From a virus, in IMG/VR virus record IMGVR_UViG_3300021420_000001, positions 32,001-96,000 of that record: DNA of 64,000 nucleotides; one strand, 5' to 3'. Both the position numbers and the translations under genes were made by a program. The notes under the pieces are model-generated. The model saw only the letters and a program-made list of their open reading frames with translations. It did no database searches and had not been told where the DNA came from. This document shows, piece after piece, positions 8,996 through 49,210 of the stretch (positions are counted from its first letter, which is position 1; each line of letters begins with the position of its first letter).

Positions 8996-9234
8996 ACCAA
9001 CTCTGGGTTCAACATTTTCTCGAAGATCGTGATACTGGTCTTACGTTCGACAATTGGACGGAAGCGCCAATTCTGCCAAGCACGTCCAGACCCATCAATA
9101 TCAATACAACCAATTCCGTTTGTCAATGAATGCACCACGTAAATACGATTTTTGACCAGAGGATAGGTGCAATGCCATTTGTTCGCAGGCAGACTAGCAT
9201 CAACACAAACAACTTTCTGTCCAACATGGAACAT
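8992..9234 (-). CDS. Small hypothetical protein (VGQKVVCV family)
   Basis: 80 aa; shares its N-terminus with 44000..44245. Confidence 0.65.
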   Translation of the reverse strand: MFHVGQKVVCVDASLPANKWHCTYPLVKNRIYVVHSLTNGIGCIDIDGSGRAWQNWRFRPIVERKTSITIFEKMLNPELV

Positions 9235-9241
9235 GAGGCAA

Positions 9242-11674
9242 CTAAGCCGCTACCGGCTCCTCCAAAAGGTTTCGCTTGAGCCTAATGTTAGTCATTTGCT
9301 TGATCTGTTCTTCTGCTGCCGCACCGTAGCGATGACGAATCATACCTAGGTAGACGGGAGATGTGAAATACACCTGGAAAGCCATATCGCGGAAGGCAAG
9401 GACCTGTTTGGCCGTAAGACTCTGCGTACTCAACGGAAGACAATCTTCTGAATGTTGTGCGTAGCCGCTCCAATTCTTGGGCAGCTCAATCCCAGTCTTG
9501 ACGGCTTCCTCGTATAGCTTGGAGCCAGGATATGCCATTGCCGAGTAGAAGTTGGCGTACTCGGTGTTCAGTTCCATTGCCAGCCTCAACGTCGCCTGCA
9601 TAGAAGGATAGTCATCATCAGGAAGCCCGAAAATATAATTCCCAATGACATTAATACCGGCCCGTTGAATATTCCGTACAACATCCACAATGTCATCATT
9701 CTTGAGTGCCTTCTGGGCTCCATCGCGGACGTGCTTGGAACCGGACTCGATCCCGAGTGCTAGCCAGCGGAAGCCCGCCTGCCTAAGCATTTCCAATGTA
9801 TGGGGCTTGACGGTATCGATCCGCGCGTACGCCCACACATTGATCTCTTTGCCGAGTCCGGTCGCGATCAGCTGCTTGGCAATTGCCGTATAGTGACGTT
9901 CATTGAGCACGAACATCTCATCGACGATCTTGAAGGTCTTGACACCGTAACGGGCATTAAGCATGACCATCTCGTTGACGACTTCGGTCGAGTCGCGCAT
10001 CCGGTAAACGTTATTACCGAAAGGAGCCGATATGCAACAGAAACTACAATTTTTGACAAGAACGTTGTTCGCGTAAAACCATCCCGTAGCTGGAACCGTC
10101 AGACAGTAGACATCATGTACACCCTTCAGGGGCGTAACCGACACCACCCGATGATTGATCAGCTTCCCATCTTCCTGTTTATTTTTCCATGGATTGAAAT
10201 TACGGCGGCCTGCAAAATCCTTTGCATGCTTTGCCTCTACGCTTCGATAAGCCCGACCAGTCTCATGATCTGTCCACCAGCGACGTCTCACTTCTTCACG
10301 TTTTTTAGCTGCTATACGCAACTTCGCAATATAAGCAGGATCGGCTGCACGCTTCTGAGCAGCCTTACGATAATTTTCAATGGATTTTGCAGAACGTGTT
10401 AATCCTGTTAAGCCTTTTGTAATTTTAGCGCGCCATTCGGGGGTCATGTTTTTAGCGGGATTATTTGTTCGCATCCGTTCCCCAATTTCAGGATGCTGAG
10501 AAAAATGCTCTAAGGCTGATGCGTAATACTCAAGGTTATTGGGATGATCATTTGTAGAATCGTGATCTACGTGATGTACATGCTCTGTCTTTTTAAGTCG
10601 ACGTTTAATCAAATATTCCATGATCATCCGAGAACGGACCTGCCGCCCACGTCCACTCCAATTAACATATATACGTTCTACGTAAGAATTATACTCAAAT
10701 CGAAGGGCACGAACATGCGCACCCTCAACAAGATTTTGAGCTTCGCATGCCCATTGTTTTCCCTTAGCTTTTGTTTGCCCCCACTTGAACTGAAGGAACT
10801 TGTGATCAGGGGTACAATCAATATGGGTTCCATCATCAAAACGAACCCGAACGAGTTTCGACTTTCCATACTTTCGAATATGGATAGAGTCCGTAATGTA
10901 TGCTCGCTTTGATTCAGGATCAAAGGTGTATATAGGAACTCCCTTGTCACCAAAACGTTTTACGAGTTCTCGTATTGGAATATTCCCATAAATCGTATTT
11001 ACAGGAGTATCTCCTGCTAAACATTTAAAAGGGCAATTTAACGTGGTGTGAATAGAAGCGTACGGTTGGCGAGATGATCCGTCCAAAACCTGCCAATTGT
11101 GACTTCGGTACTTGTTCATTGGGAGCAAGTCCCAGGCGTTACCGTGCAAGTGCTTCATATCAATTAGAGGGGCGGACGGGTTGAGATAAACATTATCACC
11201 GTCACGCCAAACGAGGCCAGGGATGTCGTCTTGGTCTTGTCCCGTAAGCAAGCCTAAGATGGTAACCGGACCCTCACCAACACAGGCATAGTCAATCGAT
11301 TCCTCCTGCATCGTTCGCTGGGGAAGGGCTGAGACATGTCCGCCAACCATGATGATCGGAGATTCTACAGCTAGCCGTTTGATTGCTTTAGAAATAGCGC
11401 CAGCTCCTGGCATTTGTTGCGTAGAAGCTGATGGCTGATGCCCATAAGCTGCGATGCAAACTAGACGAGCCCGTGCCGCTAAGATGCAGGCTGCGACCTC
11501 TGAAGGAGAGAAACCTTCGGCTTCAGCGTCCAAAATCTTGACTTCAAACCCACGGTCACGAATATAGCCGGCGATCAGGCGTGCCCACATAGGGGGTTCA
11601 CAGGCGACGAGGTTCTGATCCAGGTCGCCGTAAGCAGTTGTGCTCGGCGGATTGACGATCAACAAATCAAGCAT
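9242..11674 (-). CDS. Cobalamin-dependent radical SAM enzyme (class B methyltransferase-like), intein-containing
   Basis: B12-binding N-domain (LLIVNPP, VKILDAEAE, IMVGGHVSALP, GEG). The CxxxCxxC motif is CPFK|CSFC after intein removal. Also FKIVDEMF, LGIESGS, YIFGLPDD, YPGSKLY. Spliced product 485 aa. Confidence 0.9.
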   Translation of the reverse strand: MLDLLIVNPPSTTAYGDLDQNLVACEPPMWARLIAGYIRDRGFEVKILDAEAEGFSPSEVAACILAARARLVCIAAYGHQPSASTQQMPGAGAISKAIKRLAVESPIIMVGGHVSALPQRTMQEESIDYACVGEGPVTILGLLTGQDQDDIPGLVWRDGDNVYLNPSAPLIDMKHLHGNAWDLLPMNKYRSHNWQVLDGSSRQPYASIHTTLNCPFKCLAGDTPVNTIYGNIPIRELVKRFGDKGVPIYTFDPESKRAYITDSIHIRKYGKSKLVRVRFDDGTHIDCTPDHKFLQFKWGQTKAKGKQWACEAQNLVEGAHVRALRFEYNSYVERIYVNWSGRGRQVRSRMIMEYLIKRRLKKTEHVHHVDHDSTNDHPNNLEYYASALEHFSQHPEIGERMRTNNPAKNMTPEWRAKITKGLTGLTRSAKSIENYRKAAQKRAADPAYIAKLRIAAKKREEVRRRWWTDHETGRAYRSVEAKHAKDFAGRRNFNPWKNKQEDGKLINHRVVSVTPLKGVHDVYCLTVPATGWFYANNVLVKNCSFCCISAPFGNNVYRMRDSTEVVNEMVMLNARYGVKTFKIVDEMFVLNERHYTAIAKQLIATGLGKEINVWAYARIDTVKPHTLEMLRQAGFRWLALGIESGSKHVRDGAQKALKNDDIVDVVRNIQRAGINVIGNYIFGLPDDDYPSMQATLRLAMELNTEYANFYSAMAYPGSKLYEEAVKTGIELPKNWSGYAQHSEDCLPLSTQSLTAKQVLAFRDMAFQVYFTSPVYLGMIRHRYGAAAEEQIKQMTNIRLKRNLLEEPVAA
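10049..11023 (-). mobile_element. Intein (325 aa) with HNH endonuclease and NUMOD3-like segment
   Basis: Starts CLAGDTPV, block B IDCTPDHKF, ends VYCLTVPATGWFYANNVLVKN followed by Cys+1. Internal HVHHVDHDSTNDHPNNL. Visibly AT-richer than the exteins. Confidence 0.93.
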
Positions 11675-11799
11675 TATACGTTTCCATACCTGGAATTTCT
11701 CAGCATTTTGTAGCCAAGGATCAGCTCTTTAATTCCGGCATCGAGCGAGTACTTAGGTCGCCATCCAGTGGCTTCAATCTTGGTATTGGAGACAATCAT
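11674..11799 (-). pseudogene. Displaced duplicate 3' end of the epimerase gene (41-aa mini-ORF)
   Basis: MIVSNTKIEATGWRPKYSLDAGIKELILGYKMLRNSRYGNV* aligns without gaps to the epimerase C-terminus VVSNAKIEATGWRPKWTLDKGIEELIKGYCMLRNTVHGNI*. Confidence 0.9.
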
Positions 11800-12272
11800 G
11801 GATGCTTTTCCGGGGGCCAACGATTGCCACTTTTAATTGAACAAATATGTGCGTAATGAACTCCAAATCGACGGCTGAGCGCCATCATACCTTCTTTACT
11901 TGCCCTAATATAATCAACAATTTCCCACGTCAGTTTGGCTCTAGCATTCTGCTCGCCCGGTTGCGACTTAGCAGCGCCGTTTGTACGACCCTTACGAGCA
12001 CAATCAGACATATTATCCAAGTGCGTTCCTAAAAATAAATGACTTGGTCGAACACAACTTGGATTGTCACAGGTATGACAAACTTCTAATCCTTTTGGGA
12101 TAGCGCCAAAGTGCAATTCCCAACAAAAGCGATGAGCTTTCTTTTGTACGCCAGCAATCTTTATCGCCCCATAATCACCGTTCTTAGACAGATCCCAAAA
12201 CCAACATTTACGGGTCTTAATAACATGCCGCCAAAACCGTTGAACGGGAGTTTCGTCTGGCCAACGAGACAT
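11796..12272 (-). CDS. Free-standing HNH homing endonuclease
   Basis: RFWRHV..CWFW..YG..AHR..VCHTCDNPSCVRPSHLFLGTHLDNMSD..KGR, then GEQNARAKLT and a C-terminal HTH. Likely start is ATG 12272 (TAATG overlap). Confidence 0.92.
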   Translation of the reverse strand: MSRWPDETPVQRFWRHVIKTRKCWFWDLSKNGDYGAIKIAGVQKKAHRFCWELHFGAIPKGLEVCHTCDNPSCVRPSHLFLGTHLDNMSDCARKGRTNGAAKSQPGEQNARAKLTWEIVDYIRASKEGMMALSRRFGVHYAHICSIKSGNRWPPEKHP

Positions 12273-13204
12273 TAGATATTTCCGTGAACCGTATTGCGAA
12301 GCATACAATAACCCTTAATCAATTCCTCAATTCCTTTGTCCAAAGTCCATTTTGGCCTCCACCCAGTAGCTTCAATTTTAGCATTTGAAACTACATAATT
12401 CCTTTTATCCAGGTCTTCTCCAATAGGAGATTCAAGGAAGACGAAGTTGGGCACGTGAGTCTTAATTCTTTCGCATAATTCGCGCTTAGACAGGTTTGCG
12501 TCGGATAAACCCACATTGTAAATCTGACCCTTCATCTTACCGAAACGATAGAGCCCTTGCAGGAATGCAGCAGCGGCATCTCTAATGTGGATGTAGTTGC
12601 GTTTGAAATCCGCCTCGAAAAGTACTACCGTCCTATCGTGTACGGCACGATATACAAAATCGTTAACCAGCAAATCGATACGCATACGGGGAGACATACC
12701 GAAGACAGTCGCGAGTCGGAAACTGATACTGTTCTCGCGTTCCATCACAATCTTTTCGGCATCGACCTTGGTCTGACCGTAAAGACTGATGGGCTTGAGT
12801 GGACTCTCCTCGGTACATTCCTTACCCGGTTCCCCGATACCATAACCGCTATTCGAGATCGGAATCAAGACAATTTGTTCTTTGCTCATATGCGAGATTG
12901 CAGTCTGGACGGCACCGACATTGGTACTCGTAGCCGCCAATTGATCTCGATCACAGAGTGGCGCACCGACAAGAGCGGCTAGTGGAATGAAGACGTCGTT
13001 GACTTTTAGCTCTGACTCCAGAATGCGATAGTCTCTTGCATCCCCATTGATAACTTCAAAATGGGGGCTGGAACAAAGGGCGTTTAGCGGGGCTTGGCCA
13101 AACAGAAAGTTGTCAATGACGGTAACCCGATGCCCGTCAGCAAGAAGGGCTGGAACGAGGATACTTCCGAGATATCCCGCTCCCCCGGAAACCAGTACCC
13201 TCAT
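12272..13204 (-). CDS. NAD-dependent epimerase/dehydratase/reductase (extended SDR)
   Basis: VSGGAGYLGS Rossmann motif, YGQTK (YxxxK), FRLATVFGMSPRMRIDLLVNDF. Confidence 0.92.
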   Translation of the reverse strand: MRVLVSGGAGYLGSILVPALLADGHRVTVIDNFLFGQAPLNALCSSPHFEVINGDARDYRILESELKVNDVFIPLAALVGAPLCDRDQLAATSTNVGAVQTAISHMSKEQIVLIPISNSGYGIGEPGKECTEESPLKPISLYGQTKVDAEKIVMERENSISFRLATVFGMSPRMRIDLLVNDFVYRAVHDRTVVLFEADFKRNYIHIRDAAAAFLQGLYRFGKMKGQIYNVGLSDANLSKRELCERIKTHVPNFVFLESPIGEDLDKRNYVVSNAKIEATGWRPKWTLDKGIEELIKGYCMLRNTVHGNI

Positions 13205-13479
13205 CCAGAAACTCCCAAGAACTCTTCCTTTATGATTGAAGGTTCACAATGTCGACGCCTAATATCAAATCCGCGGCGCTTTGTTACTGTGACGAGAAAT
13301 TCTCGTGAACCAATATCATCACTAAACAAAAGCTCGTAAGGAGTCTCTGGAATAAATTCTTTTGTCTTATCGACATCTCGTATATCTAAGGGAAGCCACG
13401 CAGCTTTCTCCGTCTCAAAAAGTAGACAAGCCCGGACCCCATTATCATCATAAGCAAAAATGCTGATGGTACGCTTCAT
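13201..13479 (-). CDS. Hypothetical protein
   Basis: Likely start MKRTISIF with AGAGGG upstream; stop overlaps the epimerase start. Confidence 0.5.
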   Translation of the reverse strand: MKRTISIFAYDDNGVRACLLFETEKAAWLPLDIRDVDKTKEFIPETPYELLFSDDIGSREFLVTVTKRRGFDIRRRHCEPSIIKEEFLGVSG

Positions 13480-13523
13480 GCTACAACCCTCTTTATGCCA
13501 GCCCCGCCACTCATCAGAATACG

Positions 13524-13982
13524 TTATCGGGCACGCTGCGGTCCTTGATTCTGATCTTGGTATTTTCCGTTGTATGGAATTTCCGTTGGCCGATCTAACT
13601 GATGAAAGATAACTTGGGCAATTGCCCATCCAGGCTCCATTTTCAGTAGCTCAAGATTATGATATGTAATTTCAAGCGTGAGGTATCCCCGCCAACCCGG
13701 CTCCAACACGGTATTTTGAACCAAAAGTCCACGACGCGCCAAAGAAGATTTATCATGCACTACACCAACAATGTTATCTGGCAAATTGAAACGTTCAAGA
13801 GCTGATGCTAAAACAAAACAACCATTATACAATGTAATTTGTTCCGCTAAAGTTATATCTACGCCACAAGCACTAAGTCCTATAGAATTACCAAAACCAT
13901 CTTTCGACGATTCGTTAAGCGGACTTACTAAACCATTCCCACTTACACTAAACTGTCTGATTGTTTGGGCGCTAAGAACCAA
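13524..13982 (-). CDS. dcd: dCTP deaminase / trimeric dUTPase superfamily
   Basis: VHDKSSLARRGL, NTVLEPGWRGYLTLEI, IAQVIFH, YNGKYQDQ. Confidence 0.88.
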   Translation of the reverse strand: MVLSAQTIRQFSVSGNGLVSPLNESSKDGFGNSIGLSACGVDITLAEQITLYNGCFVLASALERFNLPDNIVGVVHDKSSLARRGLLVQNTVLEPGWRGYLTLEITYHNLELLKMEPGWAIAQVIFHQLDRPTEIPYNGKYQDQNQGPQRAR

Positions 13983-13983
13983 G

Positions 13984-15135
13984 TTACACCAATACCTTCT
14001 TCATGATCTCGACCGCCCGACCAATCTGCTCCTCTATTGGGTACGGGGCGCAGCCGATGAAAAGTCCACAATCGTGGATACGATCCGCATTCGGCGTTTC
14101 GGCCTGAGACCGCCAGGGAGCCCCATAGGCGTGCTTGAGGAACGAGCCCCCCGTCGGTAAGCGCGAGTCAATCCCCGCGTCAGCGAGCTCCGCAACGAGT
14201 CTGGACCGCATTTCCGACGAAGAAACGGTGAGGGGGAGCCCAAACGGGCTGGGATCCATGCTCCGGCTGACCGGTAGTTTGATCGGGAGGTCTTTCGTCA
14301 AGTCTCGGAACAGGGCTAGATTACGTTGGCGGGCGACGATGAAGCCCTTGAGCTTCTTCAACTGCTCCCGCGCGATAGCGGCATGCATTTCCAAGGGACG
14401 GAGGTTGTATCCGAAGTGGGTAAAGTTGTAGCTGTCCTCGAAGGTCTTCGGTGGATCGACGTCGCGGGTCCAACCATGGGCCCGGAGAATGCGACAGAGC
14501 CTAGCGCACTCAGCATCATTTGTAAGTACGAGACCTCCTTCTACAGCACTGATCTGATGCGAATGAAAGAAGGAGAACGAATTCATTAGGCCAAGGGTGC
14601 CACAGAGATCGTTGCCGTAGTAGGCACCCAGGCTTTCGCAGTTGTCTTCGATGAAGTAGCCACCGTGGGACTCGATTGCGACCTTCAGGAAGTTCAGTGG
14701 CGCGGGGTTGCCAAGAATTGAACAACCAACCACCAACTGAGAGCCAGTAACATCAGGTAGCCCAGAACACCAAGTATTATCGCAGTCCTCAATTTTGAGG
14801 CGAAGTCCCGCGTTAACAAGCGGAGCATACGTGGTACTCCAAGCTAGGGCCGGGACGATAACCTGATCCCCACGCTTGAGGGGGTGTTCCTTTTTGGCGA
14901 AGAGTGCCGCAACCATCAACAGATTGGCAGATGATCCGCTATTGCACATAATGCCGTACTTCATCTTGTGAAAGCCGGCGAACTCCTCTTCGAACTGCTC
15001 GACCTCTGGACCCATTGTAAAGCGGTCAGAGGCGATAACCCGATGAATCGCAGTCTTCTCGCGCTCGTCCCAGGACGAAAATGCGGTCGGATACCAAAAT
15101 CCCTTATTCCAAGGCTTGACTACGACGTCGTGCAC
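13984..15135 (-). CDS. DegT/DnrJ-family PLP enzyme, ColD-like NDP-4-keto-6-deoxyhexose 3-dehydratase
   Basis: NSGSSANLL, VPALAWSTTYAP, EDNCESLG, SFFHSHQISAVEGG (His where aminotransferases have Lys), AHGWTRD, GYNLRP. Confidence 0.88.
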   Translation of the reverse strand: MHDVVVKPWNKGFWYPTAFSSWDEREKTAIHRVIASDRFTMGPEVEQFEEEFAGFHKMKYGIMCNSGSSANLLMVAALFAKKEHPLKRGDQVIVPALAWSTTYAPLVNAGLRLKIEDCDNTWCSGLPDVTGSQLVVGCSILGNPAPLNFLKVAIESHGGYFIEDNCESLGAYYGNDLCGTLGLMNSFSFFHSHQISAVEGGLVLTNDAECARLCRILRAHGWTRDVDPPKTFEDSYNFTHFGYNLRPLEMHAAIAREQLKKLKGFIVARQRNLALFRDLTKDLPIKLPVSRSMDPSPFGLPLTVSSSEMRSRLVAELADAGIDSRLPTGGSFLKHAYGAPWRSQAETPNADRIHDCGLFIGCAPYPIEEQIGRAVEIMKKVLV

Positions 15136-45315: not shown

Positions 45316-46266
45316 TCAATCGTAAATATTAGGAGCGGCTTTACCAGTCAATTCTCGGTAAGTTTTCGCCCAACGCTCGTAGGCATCCTTTGTATTTTGC
45401 CCATAACTACCGTAACGATTTTCACCTTGTTTGAAAGTGTTGCGCAATCTTGACATAGCTCCCAAAGCTTCTTGAACACGCTTTTGATCAGCAGGCCCAG
45501 CAACATCTTTACCTTTCTTTGGGGGCTTGTTCCCATACTTTGTATTTGTCAAATCATCGGTGGGACCAGAGCCTGGCGCTCTAGTATCAGTTGGTCTTGC
45601 ATTCCTGCTAGCAGGCTTCCCCTGAGCCGCTTTTGCGGCAGCCGTCAAAGGCTCAGGCTTGGTATACACCACGTTAGCCTTCTCGATGTCCATGCCCTCA
45701 AACATACCATCCATCGCATATTCGATATAGTCCAAAGCCTCCTGCTTCACCCCAAACATGCGCGGACCGCCAGGACCATTAGCGAACCAGCGACCAGAGT
45801 CCAGCGCCATACCTTCCAACAAGACGAAGTCACCAATCCGGTCTACGATCTGCGCTTGACAGTCTGGCAATGAATCACAGGCGAACCGGAGGGGCATTTG
45901 ATCTTTTGCTCCTACGGTGAGAAGACCACGAGAGGCATCCATCGCTTCCTCCTCGTCTCCCCGTGCCTTAATCGGCCCGCTCACCTGACCATGAGCAACA
46001 ACTCCTTCCGACTTGTAACCAGGGTTTTCCTTCTCTGCTGTGTTTACCGCCTCTTGTCTAGAAGAGGCTCTGAGACGAACTCCACGTCGACGCCCACCTT
46101 CTCCCACTAGATTGACTTGCCACTCCATATCTGCGTCCTCAGCCTCATCCCCGCGTGCCTTACTATACGCAATTGCCGCTGCCTGCTTCGGGTCCTTGCC
46201 GGCGTTGATCTCAGTGCCGATATTGCTACTGATGGTCTCTTTGCTGGAACCTGATTTCAGCGGCAT
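45316..46266 (-). CDS. Modular putative internal head protein
   Basis: N-term MPLKSGSSKETISSNI..KQAAAIAYSKA, then short modules separated by A/G-x-D motifs. Confidence 0.7.
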   Translation of the reverse strand: MPLKSGSSKETISSNIGTEINAGKDPKQAAAIAYSKARGDEAEDADMEWQVNLVGEGGRRRGVRLRASSRQEAVNTAEKENPGYKSEGVVAHGQVSGPIKARGDEEEAMDASRGLLTVGAKDQMPLRFACDSLPDCQAQIVDRIGDFVLLEGMALDSGRWFANGPGGPRMFGVKQEALDYIEYAMDGMFEGMDIEKANVVYTKPEPLTAAAKAAQGKPASRNARPTDTRAPGSGPTDDLTNTKYGNKPPKKGKDVAGPADQKRVQEALGAMSRLRNTFKQGENRYGSYGQNTKDAYERWAKTYRELTGKAAPNIYD

Positions 46267-46698: not shown

Positions 46699-46967
46699 AT
46701 CGCGCCGCCACCTTCAAACCTGTATGGAAAGCCTAGCCGATTCCGAAGCCACGTCCAATTCCATATGGGCTGAGACGTGCCGCCTATTTTGCGGTCGCCT
46801 AAGAGCGGCCACGCTACCCCCCAATTTTGCAAAGCAAATTGCCACAGCATCCAGCCTCGGTAGCCGCGTGGCCTATGCGCGTCGATGAATGGACGCCATG
46901 ACTTTACGAACGGCGCTAGACCAAACTTGTGGCCCCATAACCATTCGACAAAAGTCAGCGCACTCAT
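46695..46967 (-). CDS. Trp-rich small hypothetical protein
   Basis: 90 aa; ATGA overlap with the portal stop. Confidence 0.5.
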   Translation of the reverse strand: MSALTFVEWLWGHKFGLAPFVKSWRPFIDAHRPRGYRGWMLWQFALQNWGVAWPLLGDRKIGGTSQPIWNWTWLRNRLGFPYRFEGGGAM

Positions 46968-48745
46968 TCCGCAGCCTCGCTTGGCAAAAGCTTCTTCAGC
47001 TTAGTCATACGCTCAGCCCGCTCGGGATGGGGCTTAGGCTGGCTGTGCATCAACCTTACCAGCTTACCCGTCCGGGCCGTGCGATGGCTCATATCGGGTT
47101 CGGACCCATCTAGATCGGGTTCTAAGCCCCCTAGAGCGTCTTCGGACCCATCCTCAGGATTTTCCCCCTCATCCCGTTCGGACGCGCCTGCGACCGTTTC
47201 TGCGGGTTCCTCGCCCTCTCCTAGCTCGGCCTTGACCCCACCACCGCCACCCTTGGGTATGAGGCCGGCTTCGATCTCGCCCTTGAGGTCAGGCATCGTA
47301 GTCTTATCCAAGCCCTGGTAGGGCGATTCGGCATCATCGGCGAGACGGATACGGACCTCTTCCTGACTGATGACACCCATATCAACGTAGATCTGATCGG
47401 TACGGGCCTGGACCTCGCCGACCTCAGAATGTTCTTTCTCATCCATAGACCAGAGCGGCTCGAAGGCGAACGTAATGGCAGGATCAACTTGGCCCCAGAG
47501 GTCTAGCATCGTGAAATGCATCAGACGTGTCAGGTTCTTACGAAGAAAGGTTTCCTGCCGATCATGGATGGTGTCGTAGAATGCCCTGATCTCGCCTTCG
47601 GAGCTCGCATTCAGTCCCGTCGGCTGCAAACCCGTGAACTTGACAGCCGGGATGCGCGCTACCGACATCATGTGTTCTTGGGCTTGGGCCTGTAAGGCAT
47701 CGAGCGTACCAAGAGGCGCAACAGTATTTGTGAACTCCTCGGTGTCCTTGTCGGTCAACATGATGCCGCGATTGTCGCGGAACCGATTGAAGAGTTCTGC
47801 TCGCTTGAAGAGTAGGTCACCACCCTCCATCAGGGACTCAGCTAAGTTTGTCTTCAAACCCCAAACGACGAAGGCGTGGATCAGGTCATTGACGGATTGC
47901 CGGGTTATCAGCCAGTTATCTACGTAGGGCTTCATGATCTGACTGAGTGACAGACCACCAAAGCTATACGCAGGCTTCAGGATGTCGGGAACTTCACGTC
48001 CTACGAAAGTAAGGAAGCGGGAAACATGCAACTCTTTACCCATTACGAACCAGTGTTGGGGGTTGTACCAATCTGGTGCCAAAGGATCATTGGAGTTGTA
48101 ATTGGTCGGGTAGGCCCAGATGGCCTCTACGGTCGTAAGACGTTTCAGTGATCCACGCTTGACCTTGGCCCGACTGATCTTGTTCTGACCATCACCAATC
48201 GGCATGCGGAGTTCGTTAGCATCATCCTTGGAACCAAAATCCAGATGTAGATGGGATCGACCGAAGTAACCATCCTGCTCGATCAGAGTACGGCAACGAT
48301 CCTGGACTTCGAGTTCCTTCCACTTGTCCTCGAGTTCCTTGATCTCCTTACCCTTGTCTGCCTTACCGACAGCTTCGAACTTGATCCATTTACGGCACAT
48401 CTCACCGGCTATTGTTTCGACCGGGATGCGATATTCAGGTCTCTGAGCGAGCTGCGCGAGATAAGGATAGCCTAGGAACTGTAGGCCTTCATGGAACGAT
48501 TGCCCAATAACAGATGAAGCCCAAGAGAAATCGCTATTGAAGCCGGAGTTGTCATCCATCGCCATCTTTGCGGCTTTGACAGCGCGCATGAGGCGGGGCG
48601 GATGGGCCGGGAACTGGAAAGTCTGGACGGATTGTGATGCATTACGTGACGGACCGGCTCTGGCTATGGCCTGATCGTAGGCAAAGCTCAAGTCCTGACG
48701 AGTGGGCTTAGCCTTCTTGCGCTTAGGGATGTAACGGGCGACCAT
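46964..48745 (-). CDS. Portal protein (DUF1073-like) with acidic C-terminal extension
   Basis: FLGYPYLAQLAQRPEYR, HVSR, LKPAYSFGGLSLSQ, GLQPTGLNASSEGEIRAFYD, FEPLW. Confidence 0.92.
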   Translation of the reverse strand: MVARYIPKRKKAKPTRQDLSFAYDQAIARAGPSRNASQSVQTFQFPAHPPRLMRAVKAAKMAMDDNSGFNSDFSWASSVIGQSFHEGLQFLGYPYLAQLAQRPEYRIPVETIAGEMCRKWIKFEAVGKADKGKEIKELEDKWKELEVQDRCRTLIEQDGYFGRSHLHLDFGSKDDANELRMPIGDGQNKISRAKVKRGSLKRLTTVEAIWAYPTNYNSNDPLAPDWYNPQHWFVMGKELHVSRFLTFVGREVPDILKPAYSFGGLSLSQIMKPYVDNWLITRQSVNDLIHAFVVWGLKTNLAESLMEGGDLLFKRAELFNRFRDNRGIMLTDKDTEEFTNTVAPLGTLDALQAQAQEHMMSVARIPAVKFTGLQPTGLNASSEGEIRAFYDTIHDRQETFLRKNLTRLMHFTMLDLWGQVDPAITFAFEPLWSMDEKEHSEVGEVQARTDQIYVDMGVISQEEVRIRLADDAESPYQGLDKTTMPDLKGEIEAGLIPKGGGGGVKAELGEGEEPAETVAGASERDEGENPEDGSEDALGGLEPDLDGSEPDMSHRTARTGKLVRLMHSQPKPHPERAERMTKLKKLLPSEAAE

Positions 48746-49210
48746 TTAACGTTGCCAAGAAGACCCAGTTGCTTCCCAAGGACCATATTTCTTGTGCTCA
48801 GGGTCTGCGTTAACCTGATTTTCAACTTGTTTACGAATTCCGTTTTCCTGCGCAGTACTTCGTGGCCCTGACGTTCGCATTGAAACTGTTAAACGCTTTC
48901 CATCTTTTGCTTTAAGCGAAATTTGCAAACTATGTTCTTCAGCATCTGTTGAAGGCTTCGGCTTTGGAGGAGGTTTACCTTGCCCATACTTCGTATTTGT
49001 CAAATCCTCGATAGGCCCAGAACCAGGGGCTCTAGTATCTAGAGGTCTTGCATCCAACGCTATTCCCTTAACCTCACTCCGCGCAATCCCCACATCCATT
49101 GCCATCCGGCCCGCGTAAGCGACGGCTTCCTGCTGCGTCACGAACTGAATAGAGCGCGAGCCACCATGCTTGAATTCGAGATCGACGGTGAACCAATTAT
49201 CATCACTCAT
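48746..49210 (-). CDS. Modular putative internal head protein
   Basis: Shares DTRAPGSGPxxDLTNTKYG with 45316..46266; has AMD, ALD and STD motifs. Confidence 0.65.
   Translation of the reverse strand: MSDDNWFTVDLEFKHGGSRSIQFVTQQEAVAYAGRMAMDVGIARSEVKGIALDARPLDTRAPGSGPIEDLTNTKYGQGKPPPKPKPSTDAEEHSLQISLKAKDGKRLTVSMRTSGPRSTAQENGIRKQVENQVNADPEHKKYGPWEATGSSWQR

Follow-up and report, generated by a model that had tools for sequence, protein, structure and literature searches.

How has the 3' end of an epimerase gene come to lie twice, on either side of an HNH endonuclease gene, in the genome of an uncultured soil phage? The locus lies in a stretch of 64,000 nucleotides (the window, to which positions refer unless stated otherwise), taken from IMG/VR virus record IMGVR_UViG_3300021420_000001; this record is 111,480 bp long, has direct terminal repeats and derives from a soil metagenome. 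A complete epimerase gene is followed by a free-standing HNH_3 gene, then by the epimerase 3' end again in diverged form (hereafter the remnant) and directly by a B12-binding radical S-adenosylmethionine (SAM) gene. The explanation that we favor, with moderate confidence, is that the locus is an end-replacing homing-endonuclease cassette like the WHO elements of yeasts and the mORFs of fungal mitochondria. The features concerned are as follows; GC3 denotes the G+C content at third codon positions and ORF an open reading frame.

12272-13204, minus strand: extended short-chain dehydrogenase/reductase (SDR), nicotinamide adenine dinucleotide (NAD)-dependent epimerase/dehydratase gene, 310 aa, complete (PF01370, E = 4.7e-24)
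12365-12436, minus strand: tract A/T-rich at third codon positions, codons 257-280, across the duplication boundary (270/271), with G or C at 3 of 24
12275-12394, minus strand: in-gene copy of the duplicated segment, codons 271-310, GC3 34%
12270-12274, minus strand: TAATG, overlap of epimerase stop and HNH start, read from the sequence
11796-12272, minus strand: free-standing HNH_3 (His-Me finger) endonuclease gene, 158 aa (PF13392, E = 9.5e-17)
11796-11799, minus strand: ATGA, overlap of HNH stop and mini-ORF ATG; to within a few bases, the position of the novel joint
11674-11799, minus strand: displaced epimerase 3' end, a 41-codon mini-ORF (homologous codons 11677-11796), GC3 51%
11672-11676, minus strand: TAATG, overlap of mini-ORF stop and radical SAM ATG, read from the sequence
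9242-11674, minus strand: B12-binding radical SAM gene, 810 aa, next gene after the remnant (PF02310, PF04055, PF14890)

The original prediction, made from the letters of this DNA, held that the last 40 epimerase codons occur before and after the HNH gene, and this is confirmed: epimerase residues 267-310 match the remnant frame at 29 of 44 identical and 37 of 44 positive positions (BLASTP, E = 2e-20), and six-frame self-comparison of the whole genome recovers the same pair. Over the 40 homologous codons, 28 residues are identical, compared with 74 of 123 bases when the stop codon is included (60%), so that the description of the two ends as similar in protein and diverged in DNA is also borne out. 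The homology begins at IVSN, right behind the mini-ORF ATG, which shares bases with the HNH stop; the boundary falls within the most conserved C-terminal motif of the family, GEDxDKRDY/IVSN (the slash marks the boundary); in the in-gene copy, the rare residues N269 (3%) and V271 (7%) flank it. With DNA identity of only about 60% between the copies, the assembly is unlikely to have been misled by a repeat. The span 11000-13300 is covered without a difference by a Logan contig of 107,656 bases, but this contig comes from a soil run that is possibly the source of this DNA and is thus not independent support; among the Logan contigs of that one run, no variant or HNH-free form was found.

The three junctions TAATG, ATGA and TAATG had been proposed before, and direct reading of the sequence agrees with them. 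GGAAA lies about 12-14 nt upstream of all three start codons, and neither a sigma-70-like promoter nor an intrinsic terminator is predicted in 11400-12600. From this arrangement, a coupling role for the mini-ORF is plausible: the 41-codon leftover may hand ribosomes on to the radical SAM start. As phage HNH genes are often borne by introns, the in-gene end and the HNH gene might instead be spliced out together as part of a self-splicing intron. Such an explanation is barely credible for this locus, where 9000-13500 has no Rfam match at E ≤ 1 and the epimerase ORF upstream of the HNH gene runs uninterrupted to the full 310 aa, a length in line with its homologs. The same two results support the intron-less arrangement that had been suggested.

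The divergence of the two ends is informative about their origin. At codons that specify the same residue in both copies (Trp and Met excluded), the synonymous codon differs at 18 of 26, which is about saturation, and the proportion of nonsynonymous differences (pN) is 0.23. The remnant has no stop and no frameshift and keeps all residues that are invariant in the family (119 homologs); rare residues number two in the remnant and two in the working copy, and one of those in the remnant, T275, occurs also in other phage epimerases (L132-L136). A tree with the two copies as sisters is rejected (approximately unbiased (AU) test, p 0.038). This combination of synonymous saturation, kept invariant residues and rejected sisterhood argues for divergence in separate genomes. 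Both ends thus evolved in working epimerase genes of different genomes, under purifying selection, and were joined later, at a time that is recent relative to their divergence. Had the epimerase 3' end been duplicated in tandem within this genome, with divergence and an insertion of the HNH gene afterwards, the layout itself would be accounted for; yet this course is very improbable, as a non-functional copy would then have reached saturation at synonymous sites while keeping its frame and every invariant residue, and the copies would be expected to be sisters.

Base composition bears on which of the ends goes with the HNH gene. Overall GC is 38.2% in the in-gene copy, 43.9% in the remnant and 44.8% in the HNH gene; GC3 over the shared codons is 34% in the in-gene copy and 51% in the remnant, and that of the HNH gene is 35%. 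The noted AT-richness of the in-gene copy, shared with the HNH gene, therefore holds at third positions. For all genes of the genome, GC3 is 0.55 ± 0.09, and the HNH gene, at 0.35, is the fourth lowest among 127 genes. Within the epimerase gene, GC3 is 0.53 for codons 1-256 and 0.31 for codons 257-310, with a change point at codon 257 (log-likelihood ratio (LLR) 4.3). Segments of 24 codons with as few third-position G or C as codons 257-280 make up 0.13% of all such segments and occur in 7 of the 127 genes, which include the HNH gene and the start of an intein in the radical SAM gene (see below). Composition thus points to the in-gene copy as the end that arrived with the HNH gene, and the remnant matches the genomic backbone.

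In the cassette model, the HNH nuclease would cut HNH-free epimerase alleles in the conserved DKRDY/IVSN motif, near codon 270. Repair from an HNH-bearing phage would then copy in a diverged, presumably uncuttable epimerase 3' end together with the HNH gene, and the previous 3' end, or the donor's downstream fragment serving as the right-hand homology arm, would stay behind the HNH gene, beside the radical SAM gene.

Related genomes present empty as well as filled sites. Epimerase relatives comprise a phage clade (P0002-P0014) at 71-80% identity and numerous bacterial homologs at 66-70%; the homologs at 71-80% are full length, with 309-314 aa. The site is HNH-free in L036 (69% identity), where the epimerase gene overlaps the radical SAM start directly, in L132 (59%), where it directly adjoins the radical SAM gene, and in L001 (79%; the closest relative whose DNA was compared), where a 53-aa ORF lies between the two genes. 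At the corresponding site, L037, L041 and L042 have HNH_3 genes of 45-47% identity, with stops that overlap the radical SAM start or lie just before it, within about 150 nt (L041); a distant HNH gene occupies this site in L035 and L049. The presence of an HNH gene therefore varies at one locus among related genomes, which fits a free-standing homing endonuclease gene.

Two readings suggested by these relatives were not adopted. The 53-aa ORF of L001 was considered as a decayed HNH gene, but it has no significant similarity to one and is weakly DUF4177-like (E = 0.0095), so that a shared TAATG...CGTTGG is probably due to chance. A site-specific HNH lineage was indicated by a quick tree, in which four HNH genes upstream of radical SAM genes form one clade (SH-aLRT 80); the careful tree does not recover it, its monophyly is not rejected (AU p 0.45), and no lineage is claimed. 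In L041 (3359-4019), the HNH C-terminal domain occurs once more, in diverged form (33% identity, E = 1e-10), behind the complete HNH_3 gene; this extra domain fills the last approximately 130 nt before the radical SAM start and is apparently the leftover of an earlier HNH resident.

The HNH_3 gene is present in a single copy in the genome. Its PF13392 match covers model positions 1-45 of 46, and in the motif CHxCDNPxC ... HL ... DN, residues H66, C68, D69, N70, C73, H78, D86 and N87 are invariant in alignment A5. The protein is also assigned to phrog_1872/phrog_59, and toward its C-terminus it can be aligned with a helix-turn-helix-like domain of relatives. A PDB sequence search with the HNH protein gave no match. 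A blastn search against phage records gave none either.

Several results weigh against a cassette that carries its own replacement end. The compositional signal is modest, as the LLR of 4.3 indicates, and about 6% of 41-codon windows are equally AT-rich at third positions. The epimerase duplication is absent in the relatives that have an HNH gene at this site; with L037 and L041 bearing HNH_3 but no duplication, such HNH genes do not always come with a replacement end. No second genome with the same cassette was found, and none of the approximately 100 HNH_3 loci screened has the epimerase duplication; in a metagenome scan with the HNH alignment, which yielded 80 general family members, none adjoins an epimerase or radical SAM gene. 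Phylogeny of the proteins shows no discordance between gene body and in-gene end, which fall in the same clade: the gene body (aa 1-262) branches as sister of the P0004/5/6/8/11 clade (support 99/95; P0004 is the L001 epimerase), and in the C-terminal tree the in-gene end nests with P0004/5/6/8 (84/96), a position as their sister being equally likely. The remnant, which the trees put in a sister lineage, resembles P0002 and P0009 (34 of 40 residues) and is excluded from the P0004/5/6/8 group, which is part of the sister clade of the gene body (AU p 0.017), although its placement in the five-member clade P0004/5/6/8/11 is not rejected (AU p 0.14). L001, the closest HNH-free allele, likewise matches the in-gene copy at 37 of 44 residues and the remnant at 29 of 44. 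Dating by the ratio of nonsynonymous to synonymous substitution rates (dN/dS) fails, as the window and L001 have reached saturation at synonymous sites (proportion of synonymous differences (pS) 0.77).

These results alter the picture that had been drawn before. A comparison with HNH-free alleles had been proposed as a check on which end is original, and L001 favors the in-gene copy; the claim that the remnant is the phage's own old end is not supported, given the rejection from the P0004/5/6/8 group. The idea that the HNH gene brought a replacement end stands insofar as the in-gene end shares its AT-rich third positions, and does not stand as a rule for such genes, as L037 and L041 indicate. 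On whether the remnant is this phage's own old end, protein trees are at odds with composition or at best neutral. The WHO model offers a way to reconcile them: there, the mobile unit consists of the resistant 3' end and the nuclease gene, the donor's downstream fragment is the right-hand homology arm, and the fragment in a recipient can be donor-derived, recipient-derived or a chimera of the two (PMC7282813). By analogy, the remnant in the window may have any of these three origins.

The concordance of the in-gene copy with the gene body and L001, together with the resemblance of the remnant to the P0002/P0009 type, would also be expected if the in-gene 3' end were native and the HNH gene and downstream fragment had arrived as a unit, inserted behind the intact epimerase stop codon. 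We regard this as improbable. The GC3 of the remnant fits the backbone and not the HNH gene, and the AT-shifted end is the in-gene one; moreover, an HNH gene followed by an epimerase fragment occurs in no sampled relative, and the duplicated layout would have had to exist in the donor beforehand.

A stronger, though still unlikely, contender is that the duplication is a one-off accident at a site where the HNH gene normally sits between the upstream gene and the radical SAM gene. An illegitimate microhomology crossover would have joined an HNH-bearing parent, past its HNH stop, to codon 271 of the epimerase gene of an HNH-free co-infecting phage; the left arm would come wholly from one parent and the right arm from the other, and the duplication would play no role in mobility. 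L037, L041 and L042, with HNH_3 directly upstream of the radical SAM gene and no epimerase duplication, are as such an accident would have it, as is the phylogenetic concordance of gene body and in-gene end, which the remnant does not share. An ATTG microhomology joint is also possible, from the likeness between the HNH end in the window and the radical SAM start of L042: the HNH 3' end ...AAG CAT CCA TGA TTG TC resembles the HNH/radical SAM overlap ...AAG CAT GTT GAT TGA TT of L042. From this likeness, the mini-ORF ATG and the ATTG microhomology may derive from the radical SAM start of the donor, which is speculative. What a crossover between two parents leaves unexplained is the confinement of AT-rich third positions to codons 257-310. 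It would also predict different parents for the two arms, whereas the radical SAM gene, like the epimerase body, is L001-like from its first codons (it is closest to the L001 type from the first 115 residues onward). Two further cases, a second cassette in the same genome and a mirror image in another contig, do not fit a single accident either.

The second cassette lies outside the window, at 100,613-102,507 of the genome (L137:14-1908), and was recovered by the six-frame self-comparison. It has the same layout and the same pattern of composition, with an HNH gene of another family. Its parts in L137 are as follows.

SNF2-like helicase ORF (Helicase_C, E = 3e-8), with an ATGA overlap with the HNH gene
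HNH gene of another family, 213 aa (phrog_374, E = 5e-73)
open frame past the HNH gene, a diverged copy of helicase residues 335-361 (16 of 27 identical, E = 1e-9)

Here, GC3 falls from 63% in the helicase body to 44% in the in-gene copy and 38% in the HNH gene and stands at 82% in the remnant, a polarity that appears to be the same as at the epimerase; relatives of the helicase, at 44-47% identity, are too distant to settle it. The remnant of this second cassette has no ATG and starts 18 nt beyond the HNH stop, and translational coupling is therefore not a general feature. In the metagenome contig L073 (296-1218), an ORF with HNH_3 and HTH_3 domains is fused in frame behind a diverged 5' copy of the downstream gene. 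The copied part comprises the first 21 codons of that gene (18 of 21 aa), so that the layout is the 5'-end mirror of that in the window. That the layout recurs in L137 and, mirrored, in L073 speaks for a systematic mechanism and against a single accident.

Similar layouts have been described outside phages. In the WHO elements of Torulaspora and Lachancea yeasts (Coughlan et al., 2020, eLife; PMC7282813), as in the window, an endonuclease gene lies between a full-length target gene and a leftover downstream 3' fragment; the replaced 3' end is resistant, the fragment can act as a homology arm, and cleavage occurs at the boundary (PMC7282813). The 5' and 3' parts of WHO target genes differ in history, whereas in the window they differ in GC3 and are concordant in protein trees. 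WHO proteins are intein-like LAGLIDADG-zinc finger proteins of the eukaryotic nucleus, and the window has an HNH_3 gene in a phage operon; its genes overlap from stop to start, its fragment is still an open 41-codon ORF, and there is one fragment, not a cluster as at WHO loci (PMC7282813). The mORF gene hybrids of Allomyces macrogynus (atp6) and Glomus (atp6, atp9, cox2 and nad3) share with the window the order of core gene, C-terminus (the inserted one in the hybrids), endonuclease ORF and second C-terminus (the native one in the hybrids), and duplicated ends that are alike in protein and diverged in DNA (PMC3630166). The native end of an mORF hybrid matches close relatives far better than the inserted end does, which at the protein level is not found in the window, and mORFs are often fused in frame with the target gene, whereas the ORFs of the window are separate; the nuclease family and the type of genome differ as well (PMC3630166). 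The layout itself is thus already known from yeast and fungal mitochondria.

Classical intronless homing in T4-like phages leaves no duplicated target end that we know of or could find, and a full-text search of the literature found no phage description of the complete-gene, HNH and 3'-fragment layout. The window does share with intronless homing in T4-like phages (e.g., MobE) a free-standing HNH gene that lies between conserved genes and is variably present in related phages (PMC2790892). The flanking DNA of free-standing homing endonuclease genes in T4-like phages is co-converted (PMC2790892).

The surroundings of the cassette are variable too. An HNH-bearing intein interrupts the radical SAM gene at about 10049-11023, with the extein break at residues 217/543, and the start of this intein is AT-rich at third positions. 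Among relatives of the gene, the same intein occurs in L001 and other inteins in P0265 and P0273 (both PF07591) and in P0280 (PF14528), and P0267, P0275 and P0276 have none; this gene is a hot spot for selfish elements. Upstream of the epimerase gene lie two further genes.

13524-13982, minus strand: deoxycytidine triphosphate (dCTP)-deaminase-like gene
13984-15135, minus strand: DegT-type pyridoxal phosphate (PLP) enzyme gene

The dCTP-deaminase-like gene has the lowest GC3 of the genome (0.31). It is missing at this position in L001, where two unrelated ORFs separate the DegT-type gene from the epimerase gene; the position is a second variable site, upstream of the epimerase. Elsewhere in the window, the peptide ARPxDTRAPGSGPxxDLTNTKYG occurs in two different proteins (45436-45618 and 48887-49069) with a near-identical DNA core; both proteins flank a 593-aa gene (46964-48745), and this repeat is seemingly unrelated to endonucleases.

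For this one locus, the biology is ordinary for a mobile element. It provides a natural example of a selfish nuclease gene that has entered a coding sequence, left unbroken, inside a stop/start-coupled sugar-modification operon. A wider reading, which we put forward tentatively and consider rather doubtful, is that several phage HNH families form a widespread, undescribed WHO-like class of end-replacing elements, and that tightly coupled operons keep the displaced end as a translated mini-ORF because the following gene, radical SAM in this case, has its termination-reinitiation context there. Together with the second cassette, the finding suggests that end replacement may be a common route by which phage homing endonucleases spread; it would also yield chimeric gene ends and small leftover ORFs that are annotated as orphan genes.

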